Positions 245-1,062 of a DNA stretch of 1,062 bases are shown piece by piece. This stretch comes from Naegleria gruberi. Its lineage: Eukaryota. The position numbers were made by a program, and so were the translations under genes. Every line of letters begins with the position of its first letter. The first letter of the stretch is position 1. The notes below the pieces were generated by a model, which saw only the letters and a list, made by a program, of their open reading frames with translations, ran no database searches and was not told the origin of the DNA. The stretch is from assembly GCA_000004985.1 (NCBI GenBank), contig GG739585.1, one strand, 5' to 3'.

Positions 245-383
245 GATGAGTGGAGGTTCAAATTTCTAGCTATTACTCTTGTTTTTAAAATCGAAATTAA
301 ATTCACATGGTGACAGTGCTGTTAATTTTTTTGTTGTTGAAAATTTCCGCCACTCCAATATTTTTTAGCCGTTACCAAACAAA
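245..383. promoter_or_regulatory. Compact divergent intergenic and promoter region between the minus-strand ATG (244) and the plus-strand ATG (384). It should contain both 5' UTRs and the core promoters.
   Basis: It is 139 bp long, lies between two divergently oriented start codons, and has T-runs (tgttaatttttttgttgttgaaaattt, 320..346). No bacterial -35/-10 plus SD arrangement fits either start. Its boundaries depend on which start codons are correct. Confidence 0.3.
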
Positions 384-1062
384 ATGGCAAATAACAACTT
401 GTAAATCCTACTGAGAGGATTACCTGGTTCTGGGAAGGTTTGTTACCACAAAAGTCATCTTGAACAATTTGTGAACAACATTATTATCTAATAATTATAG
501 TCCTTCTTGTGTGATAAACTCATCCTTCTTCTCGATCAACATTTTCAACAACAAACTATTCATCATCGGAAGAAAACTTCAACCAATGATCAACAACATG
601 ATGAAGAATATTTAATTCTAAAACTAAGTAGGGATACACTCAGACATGAATTATTCTCCCCTATTGGTCCGAACTTTTCCAGTCAAGAGAAATCCTTCAT
701 TGATGATTTGATTGGTCAAAGCATTCACCATCTTCTCACCAACAATTATTCTAACAACAAGCAAGTTGTTATATTCATTGATGGAATGTGTTTTTCAACA
801 ATTTCATCTCTTGAAAAGTTTATTCGAATTGCAGAGAAGGAATCAATGGATTGGTTATTGGAATCTTTTGAAGAGCGTCATCTCCTAGTTATTGACAACA
901 ATACAACAAGCCTTGAATTACTTCCCATTGTGGAATGGTTGTTAACACAAAAAGAACAGCATTAATCTATTCAAATGTAAAGCCTTTATATAATCTATCA
1001 TTTAGAACATGAAGAAAGTAATGAGAGAAAGGATGAGGACAACCATAACATGACCACTCAAA
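384..1062 (+). CDS. Extended gene model under a TAA/TAG = Gln (ciliate-type, table 6) code. It encodes a P-loop (Walker A) nucleotide-kinase-like protein, starts at ATG 384, and is open at the 3' end, continuing past the window.
   Basis: ATG 384 is in the same frame as the 507..965 track ORF (123 nt = 41 codons upstream). The only in-frame stops between 384 and 1061 are TAA at 402, 489, 492, 963 and 978 and TAG at 498. There is no TGA in this frame anywhere from 222 to 1061 (about 280 codons). Reading TAR as Q, the translation is MANNNLQILLRGLPGSGKVCYHKSHLEQFVNNIIIQQLQSFLCDKLILLLDQHF... It then continues through the track ORF and on as ...TQKEQHQSIQMQSLYIIYHLEHEESNERKDEDNHNMTTQ to the window edge. 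The motif GLPGSGK(V) at 417..440 follows a short hydrophobic strand right after the initiator Met, which is the canonical architecture of small P-loop kinases. A Walker-B-like hhhhD (ILLLD, 516..530) follows. Counting TAR codons from ATG 384, TAR makes up about 6 of about 20 Gln codons (13 CAA, 1 CAG), a proportion typical of ciliates. The alternative is a standard-code pseudogene. Confidence 0.4.
507..965 (+). CDS. The stop-free core of the same gene in the standard code (the ORF-track call). The 5' end at TTG 507 is an ORF-finder artefact and not a credible start.
   Basis: An ORF of 152 codons has roughly a 1e-5 per-frame chance of being open at this composition (my estimate), so this is real coding sequence. 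Amphipathic, protein-like segments are visible (EEYLILKLSRDTLRHELF, KSFIDDLIGQSIHHLL, KQVVIFIDG, LEKFIRIAEKESMDWLLESFEERHLLVID). The track starts at TTG, immediately after TAG 498..500 and two sense codons. The first in-frame ATG is not until 786 (codon 94). No Shine-Dalgarno sequence precedes 507. The true boundaries are therefore not those of the track. Confidence 0.55.
   Translation: MCDKLILLLDQHFQQQTIHHRKKTSTNDQQHDEEYLILKLSRDTLRHELFSPIGPNFSSQEKSFIDDLIGQSIHHLLTNNYSNNKQVVIFIDGMCFSTISSLEKFIRIAEKESMDWLLESFEERHLLVIDNNTTSLELLPIVEWLLTQKEQH

Follow-up and report, generated by a model that had tools for sequence, protein, structure and literature searches.

The described enzymes closest to the gene examined here are P-loop kinases. 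The Mucorales RNA 5′-OH kinases RazKIN and LcoKIN (PDB 9d8a, 9drz; PMC11571804), T4 Pnk and Pnkp1 share with its family a fold class, a P-loop of the form GSGKS(T), a catalytic Asp further downstream and a lid that bears Arg; in RazKIN, Ser17, the equivalent of the Ser after the Walker Lys, ligates Mg2+, and the role of the Asp in the Mucorales RNA 5′-OH kinases has also been described (PMC11571804). Sequence likeness to these enzymes is confined to two short stretches, the P-loop and the β3–β4 region. In fold, our family model comes closest to PSTK/KTI12, APS kinase, gluconate kinase and the PFK-2 kinase domain, at 13–18 % sequence identity, PSTK and KTI12 carrying an extra C-terminal tRNA-binding domain that the family described here does not have. 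We compared with these systems a gene in a 1062-nt stretch of Naegleria gruberi contig GG739585.1 (assembly GCA_000004985.1), hereafter the window, which has ~32 % G+C. We conclude with high confidence that it is a two-exon gene on the plus strand (exon 1, 384–437; intron, 438–500; exon 2, 501–965), read in the standard code and encoding after splicing the motif GLPGSGKSFLC of a Naegleria-centred P-loop phosphotransferase, and that the copy in the window is most likely non-functional.

After ATG 384, frame +3 reads GCA AAT AAC AAC TTG TAA ATC CTA CTG AGA and then, at 417–440, GGA TTA CCT GGT TCT GGG AAG GTT (G L P G S G K V), which gives the translation MANNNL-(TAA)-ILLRGLPGSGKV. An earlier reading of the window, made from its letters and referred to here as the sequence-only reading, had noted this GLPGSGKV behind a start codon and a hydrophobic ILLR, and the letters do read so. 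Of 20 000 sequences simulated from the window by a first-order Markov model, 0.33 % contained GxxGxGK in at least one of the six frames and 0.055 % contained it behind a hydrophobic run; GLPGSGK is not a chance match. Exon 1 (MANNNL(TAA)ILLRGLPGSGK) thus supplies the start codon, strand β1 and the Walker A motif up to its Lys (GLPGSGK, 417–437), and its counterparts read MANNNLLILLRGLPGSGK in a sister contig (L001, described below) and VHLIVFRGLPGSGK in N. fowleri. Downstream of the P-loop, the same frame runs into TAA TAA TTA TAG at 489–500 (TAA 489, TAA 492 and TAG 498). The sequence-only reading had carried the protein through these codons and through TAA 402 under genetic code table 6, as one continuous stretch from 384 to 545, and had accordingly reported a non-canonical Val after the Walker Lys.

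Several lines of evidence indicate that 438–500 is a phase-0 spliceosomal intron (GTTTGT...TTATAG; 63 nt, in frame, 25 % G+C), which contains all three of the downstream stops read as Gln. BLASTP alignment of the unspliced table-6 translation with N. fowleri FDP41_005988 (P0002) opened a gap between GSGK and SFLC that takes in exactly 21 residues, VCYHKSHLEQFVNNIIIQQLQ, equivalent to 438–500; the N. fowleri counterpart reads FRGLPGSGKSFLCECL (GLPGSGKSFLC), and its gene is an intronless single exon with GGT AAA TCG TTT CTT TGC at this point. The 5′ splice site AAG/GTTTGT is identical to that of an intron in the arginase gene of L001 (69 nt, GT..AG, AAG/GTTTGT...AATCAG, minus strand 5125–5057), excision of which yields one continuous Pfam Arginase match (E value 7.7e-53). 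Splicing the window in this way joins GLPGSGK to SFLCDKL, with the Ser encoded by TCC at 501–503, so that a complete GxxGxGK[ST] motif stands right after the N-terminal β-strand. A family hidden Markov model (HMM) built without the target scored the spliced window at 89 bits vs 71 bits for the unspliced table-6 reading. The Pfam search that the sequence-only reading had proposed for the table-6 translation returned a single weak match, to AAA_33 over the P-loop (E value 0.016); matches to the P-loop clan appeared after splicing (AAA_22, 2.9e-6; NPHP3_N, 4e-6; AAA_33, 3.6e-5; over residues 7–149). NCBIfam and PDB searches with the unspliced translation returned almost nothing, and the N. fowleri homologue was recovered only by the spliced query, the unspliced one missing it.

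Because the intron falls exactly between the Walker A Lys codon and the next codon, the genomic GTT and the TAA TAA TTA TAG run are both assigned to it. The apparent Val (GTT 438–440) would be the first three bases of the intron, and the residue following the Lys is predicted to be Ser; all homologues carry GK[ST] at this position. The spliced motif is GKS, and the mature protein would therefore have the canonical Mg2+-ligating Ser, which removes the basis for the non-canonical Val.

Two other introns were considered and rejected. A shorter, 32-nt intron (GTGAAC...TATAG, 469–500) would also clear the stops, yet it leaves GSGKVCYHKSHLEQF, which is seen in no homologue, and the gap is 21 residues and not ~10. 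A 15-nt ‘intron’, GTAAATCCTACTGAG (400–414), would clear TAA 402; however, it is far below the 63 and 69 nt of the introns above and would delete strand β1, and in L001 the stretch is coding (TTG TTA ATC CTA CTG CGA).

The genetic code could be read from the sister contig. Searched against 5.8 billion proteins, the table-6 translation returned one match, a 140-aa open reading frame (ORF) on L001, a 9.7-kb European Nucleotide Archive (ENA) metagenome contig. L001 1–516 pairs with window 332–854 and L001 ~626–832 with window 855–1062, at 97–99 % identity. The contig encodes a 463-aa Rieske/PaO-type protein, a 334-aa protein, the arginase, two Gly/Ser-rich secreted proteins and a Cys-rich secreted protein, and three of the encoded proteins fall, at 90 % identity, into clusters that also contain N. 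gruberi NAEGRDRAFT_53656, 74886 and 74885. Its seven clear genes (165–463 aa, about 1900 codons, with the arginase called in two pieces) contain no in-frame TAA or TAG, encode Gln by CAA or CAG and end on TAA (six) or TAG (one), which is not the pattern of a ciliate-type code with TAA and TAG as Gln genome-wide and TGA as sole stop. Because none of these genes contains either codon in frame and all of them end on one or the other, TAA and TAG are stops here. By the shared clusters, the source is an amoeba of the N. gruberi complex; it uses the standard code. TGA stops occur in L001 only in the truncated target ORF and in a doubtful 63-aa ORF; though the sample is small, TAA is strongly favoured as the stop. 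Frame +3 of the window is free of TGA from ~217 to 1062 (about 280 codons), and this had helped to suggest a code with TGA as sole stop; parts of the stretch are 5′ untranslated region, intron or antisense to a neighbouring gene, and in those parts the lack of TGA is coincidental.

Exon 2 (501–965) runs from SFLCDKL to VEWLLTQKEQH and ends on TAA 963–965. Homologue C-termini (LVHWILQQHEE, LVEWILQ and LVEWINSTN, each followed by a stop) end level with this codon, and beyond 965 the sequence is the antisense of the convergent neighbour's C-terminus. TAA 963–965 is the genuine stop of the kinase gene, and the read-through past it that the table-6 translation required was not borne out.

The family is small. 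An exhaustive phmmer search of 1.84 billion representatives with FDP41_005988 found eight proteins, namely two N. fowleri paralogues (FDP41_005988 and FDP41_013039; P0002 and P0003), N. lovaniensis C9374_011524, N. gruberi NAEGRDRAFT_70086 (P0006), the L001 ORF, two metagenome proteins and one weak match to a long repetitive protein. The two N. fowleri proteins are the nearest eukaryotic homologues (30 % identity, E value 4e-14) and share with the target GLPGSGKSFLC, KLSRDxLR, FIDGMC and a C-terminal VxWIL; unlike the target, the FDP41_005988 gene lacks the intron behind GSGK, and its 311-aa product contains large inserts and keeps β4, the lid and an HPAxxSR motif. Two scans of Joint Genome Institute (JGI) metagenome contigs, one at the protein level and one for exact DNA matches, found no further copies, and an exact look-up in a contig index had no record of the 152-aa ORF of the window or of the N. 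gruberi proteins P0006 and P0105. As a separate observation, the NAEGRDRAFT_70086 gene model starts MRFLDNKV...KLSRDDLR, without the P-loop of its N. fowleri orthologue P0003; its first exon may have been overlooked, possibly through an intron in or near the P-loop.

Beyond Naegleria, a profile search reached bacterial ‘predicted kinases’ with AAA_33 (153–189 aa, E values 1e-18 to 1e-8). Alignment of the Naegleria set with the bacterial set using hhalign was almost end-to-end (99.8 % probability, E value 4.6e-30, 164 columns, 26 % identity). Like the target family, the bacterial proteins (P0013, P0017, P0019 and P0007) carry GLPGSGKS, (S/N)(R/K)DxxR, FSxxE, hhhDG(M/R)x(L/F)S, a lid and a C-terminal helix; unlike the target, they are intronless and located in sugar-catabolism operons. 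The Naegleria proteins differ from them in having low-complexity inserts, and the target in having lost the HxAKDR lid motif, with the whole β4–lid segment lost in the window. The bacterial relatives pass the AAA_33 (PF13671) gathering threshold of 27 bits with scores of 49–57, whereas the spliced window scores 19.6 bits and a reconstruction based on L001 24.5. The homology of the target to AAA_33 is shown indirectly all the same, in that the family profile matches proteins that pass the threshold and the hhalign probability is 99.8 %. We take the product, from these alignments, to be a member of a small Naegleria-centred P-loop phosphotransferase family, homologous over its full length to bacterial AAA_33 kinases of ~175 aa.

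The AlphaFold (AF2) model of homologue P0004 (predicted local distance difference test score 86, predicted template modelling score 0.85) shows the three-layer α/β fold of a P-loop kinase, with a parallel sheet of five strands, in the order β1, P-loop, α1, β2, β3, β4, lid, β5 and C-terminal helix; the protein of the window would lack β4. Foldseek searches of the PDB with this model returned PSTK, APS kinase, gluconate kinase, the Lichtheimia RNA kinase LcoKIN, Kti12 and the PFK-2 kinase domain, at template modelling (TM) scores of 0.60–0.68. The sequence-only reading had proposed that the protein starts as small P-loop kinases of the AAA_33, PNK or KTI12/PSTK kind do, and this was upheld by the Pfam clan matches after splicing, the hhalign result and the P0004 fold, in which, as it had also anticipated, the P-loop follows β1.

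The remaining motifs required reassignment. KLILLLDQ had been put forward as a Walker B strand or catalytic Asp about 30 residues beyond the P-loop and placed at 516–533; the motif is present, although it spans 516–539, and in the spliced protein it lies only 6–13 residues past GK, where the P0004 model has a helix at residues 23–40. KLILLLDQ is accordingly modelled as helix α1 and not as a Walker B strand or catalytic Asp. Instead, a D-x-x-R motif of the PNK-like/AAA_33 type follows strand β2 as SRDTLR (627–644), with Asp as candidate general base and an Arg; the family consensus here is (S/N)(R/K)DxxR in all members, and SRDTLR aligns with the essential-Asp region of the Mucorales RNA kinases. 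The Walker-B-like strand is β3, VVIFIDG (765–785; VVIFIDGM, 765–788), whose Asp and Gly are nearly invariant in both family alignments. The Arg lid (family motif RI...HxAKDR) is deleted in the window, and in L001 one lid Arg is kept (CRLAI) while HxAxxR is absent.

Because the Lys, the Ser, D-x-x-R and an Arg lid are conserved, and by analogy with the mechanisms of known families, we infer that the family carries out nucleoside triphosphate (NTP)-dependent phosphoryl transfer to a hydroxyl. In this scheme, the NTP phosphates and Mg2+ would be bound by Lys and Ser of the P-loop, the hydroxyl acceptor would lose its proton to the Asp of SRDxLR, the Arg-bearing lid would close over the phosphates and the γ-phosphate would pass to the acceptor. 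As for the acceptor, the bacterial relatives lie, in three distinct contexts, within about 10 nt of a class II F_bP_aldolase (fructose/tagatose-bisphosphate-type) gene, with ROK, ribulose-phosphate 3-epimerase, split transketolase, LacI/GntR/DeoR regulators and sugar ABC transporters nearby; one further relative adjoins a sensor kinase gene instead. This gene set looks like an uncharacterised carbohydrate pathway, and because of this operon context a sugar or sugar phosphate is the acceptor that we tentatively favour, by analogy, among the candidates. At four of the bacterial loci (L005, L007, L009 and L010; gene at 5001–55xx), the kinase is translationally coupled or adjacent to the class II F_bP_aldolase gene, and two of the bacterial loci add an unannotated protein of about 480–520 aa.

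The alternative that fares best is that the family phosphorylates polynucleotides (RNA or DNA 5′-OH) or is a tRNA-linked kinase, as are T4 Pnk, the Mucorales kinases and PSTK, and is not a sugar kinase. T4 Pnk shares the D-x-x-R motif. In a PDB profile search the best matches among solved structures were LcoKIN and RazKIN (1.6e-12 and 6.5e-11), followed by Pnkp1, PSTK and T4 Pnk; PSTK provided the top Foldseek matches, and a role for the Asp is described for the Mucorales enzymes (PMC11571804). However, the closest relatives overall are the bacterial proteins of carbohydrate-catabolism operons, the fold is just as near to gluconate kinase, APS kinase and the PFK-2 kinase, and no RNA-repair partner genes were seen nearby. 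On this comparison with known enzymes, we regard a polynucleotide or tRNA-linked substrate as unlikely, although it deserves to be kept alongside the sugar acceptor that we prefer.

Even with the intron removed, the reading frame of the window is interrupted. A premature in-frame TAA stands at codon 7 (402–404), within strand β1, where L001 has TTA (Leu) and the homologues have L or I. A second lesion lies at 853–855, a deletion junction at which 109 nt of L001 (about 516/517 to 624/625) are missing after window position 854. The extra segment of L001 encodes WRVIEVRREENLCRLAIESSKE and then, after a +1 frameshift, LDYESVKSTFQPLE (..LDYESVKSTFQ), and aligns with N. fowleri YCIQVERDEMKCRESI...RDYDKVKQNFE. 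Since the 109 nt of L001 include a +1 frameshift and align with N. fowleri, the ancestral segment is reconstructed as 108 nt, or 36 codons, and would encode strand β4 and the lid. In agreement with this, the window matches the family profile at positions 4–104 and then weakly at 143–175, positions 105–142 being absent. In L001 the deleted stretch is bounded by a near-repeat, TGGATTGG ... TGAATTGT (window 847–861; L001 509–632), suggesting a microhomology-mediated deletion as the likelier cause. We rejected an intron as the source of the 109-nt difference, as the segment has no GT..AG ends on either strand and encodes the conserved β4 and lid.

The L001 copy has lesions of its own, a +1 shift at 560–600 between AIESSKE and LDYESV and a 1-nt deletion at 690–700 (TTAC-TACC) near the C-terminus, so that both copies are interrupted, each by different lesions. 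Among the matches of three large protein searches there was no N. gruberi protein model for the kinase gene. Two assemblies with different disabling lesions suggest that the gene is decaying in the N. gruberi complex, and the absent N. gruberi model agrees with this. We consider it fairly likely that the window copy is non-functional, and it is probably a pseudogene or null allele. The idea of a catalytically dead protein in the sequence-only reading may thus hold for this copy, albeit through the stop at codon 7 and the 36-codon deletion and not through a Val.

Alternatively, the gene could be intact, with TAA 402 reflecting an error of sequencing or assembly, or else a rare allele, and the variant shortened by 36 codons tolerated, yielding a working 172-aa kinase with GKS. 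The coding body is nearly identical to that of L001 (one substitution between alignment columns 100 and 522), without heavy decay, the frame is preserved across the deletion, VEWLLTQKEQH still forms the conserved C-terminus and the P-loop, SRDTLR and FIDG motifs are undamaged. Nevertheless, the deletion removes the central strand β4 and the whole lid (strand 123–132 and helix 135–144 in the P0004 model; profile positions 105–142), a P-loop kinase fold without β4 is unlikely to be stable or active, the two independent assemblies carry different disabling lesions and the three protein searches matched no N. gruberi model. An intact gene is in our judgement quite improbable, and a defective copy remains our preferred reading.

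Some of our findings weigh against the overall reading of a spliced, decaying kinase gene with a possible sugar-type acceptor. The case for splicing draws on homology and splice-site likeness, and the spliced target falls just under the AAA_33 gathering score. TAA 402 could be a base-call error, and the two 1-nt frame disruptions in L001 mean that some lesions could be assembly errors. Even the L001 version lacks the HPAxxR lid motif, so that the protein of this lineage may have diverged in function and not simply decayed. Finally, the argument for the acceptor comes from the genes that surround the bacterial relatives, which are distant ones (the family profiles are 26 % identical).

A further possibility is that the product belongs to the NTPase modules of the STAND or AAA+ type (NPHP3_N, AAA_22 or AAA_16 kind) instead of being a kinase of small molecules or polynucleotides. 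The top Pfam matches after splicing are AAA_22 (28.1 bits, cutoff 27) and NPHP3_N (27.6 bits, cutoff 24.8), extending from the P-loop to the FIDG strand; however, they cover Walker A to Walker B only, whereas the alignment with the bacterial AAA_33 kinases is end-to-end and includes the D-x-x-R and lid motifs. Every structural neighbour is a small kinase, and the protein is only about 170–210 aa long, with no downstream STAND domains, which makes an NTPase module of this type very improbable. Least credible of all, to the point that we give it hardly any weight, is one continuous ORF in a ciliate-type code with a true GSGKV and a pseudo-kinase or scaffold unable to ligate Mg2+ normally: the TGA-free frame and the AT-rich window agree with it, but TAA 402, 489 and 492 and TAG 498 would have to be sense codons in an organism, Naegleria, in which they are stops on the evidence of the L001 genes, its 21 extra residues are the exact gap against the homologue, the homologues end at TAA 963 with antisense of the neighbour beyond 965, and all of them have GK[ST].

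The two-exon reading leaves existing knowledge standing, and its main value is the correction of the Val and of the genetic code: a short in-frame intron in AT-rich eukaryotic DNA can mimic the signal of a variant code, as a run of TAA and TAG codons, and so create a false ‘non-canonical active site’. The result also defines, in Naegleria, an uncharacterised P-loop kinase family of very narrow distribution, with members in the pathogen N. fowleri; the gene is a new, probably defective, member of this family, and the kind of enzyme is already known. The clear bacterial relatives in carbohydrate operons offer a modest lead, and the locus records what is probably a gene loss in the N. gruberi complex. 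One possible history, which we put forward as rather doubtful, is that the Naegleria family descends from a bacterial P-loop kinase of a sugar operon, that an intron was gained inside the P-loop codons after acquisition by Heterolobosea, and that the N. gruberi complex is at present losing one paralogue, with different disabling lesions segregating among strains.

The kinase gene is flanked on both sides. Upstream, the 5′ part of a divergent ORF (MINFKEFYHQLR..., MINFKEFYHQLRILEAIHQF...) occupies 1–245 on the minus strand, open to the edge of the window and separated from the kinase gene by a spacer of 138 nt. The ORF had no Pfam match, and a comparison with the gene upstream of the N. fowleri homologue detected no similarity and gave no support for synteny. 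An Rfam scan returned only a mir-217 match, inside this ORF at 140–215 on the plus strand and at chance level (23 bits vs a gathering score of 70, E value 0.2). On L001, 3442–4158 and 6196–7383, both on the minus strand, encode paralogous secreted proteins with a common N-terminal ...ASQCRGP... motif and long low-complexity tracts of Gly/Ser/Arg (and Lys/Ser), neither of which has a Pfam match. Downstream, 1002–1062 on the minus strand is the 3′ end of the convergent gene (stop 1002–1004), whose product, secreted and rich in Cys, has a hydrophobic tail and is a homologue of N. gruberi NAEGRDRAFT_74885. Its C-terminus shows that the window is not the NEG-M reference at this locus, as it reads SGHVMVV in the window vs SAHAMVV in NEG-M and in L001.

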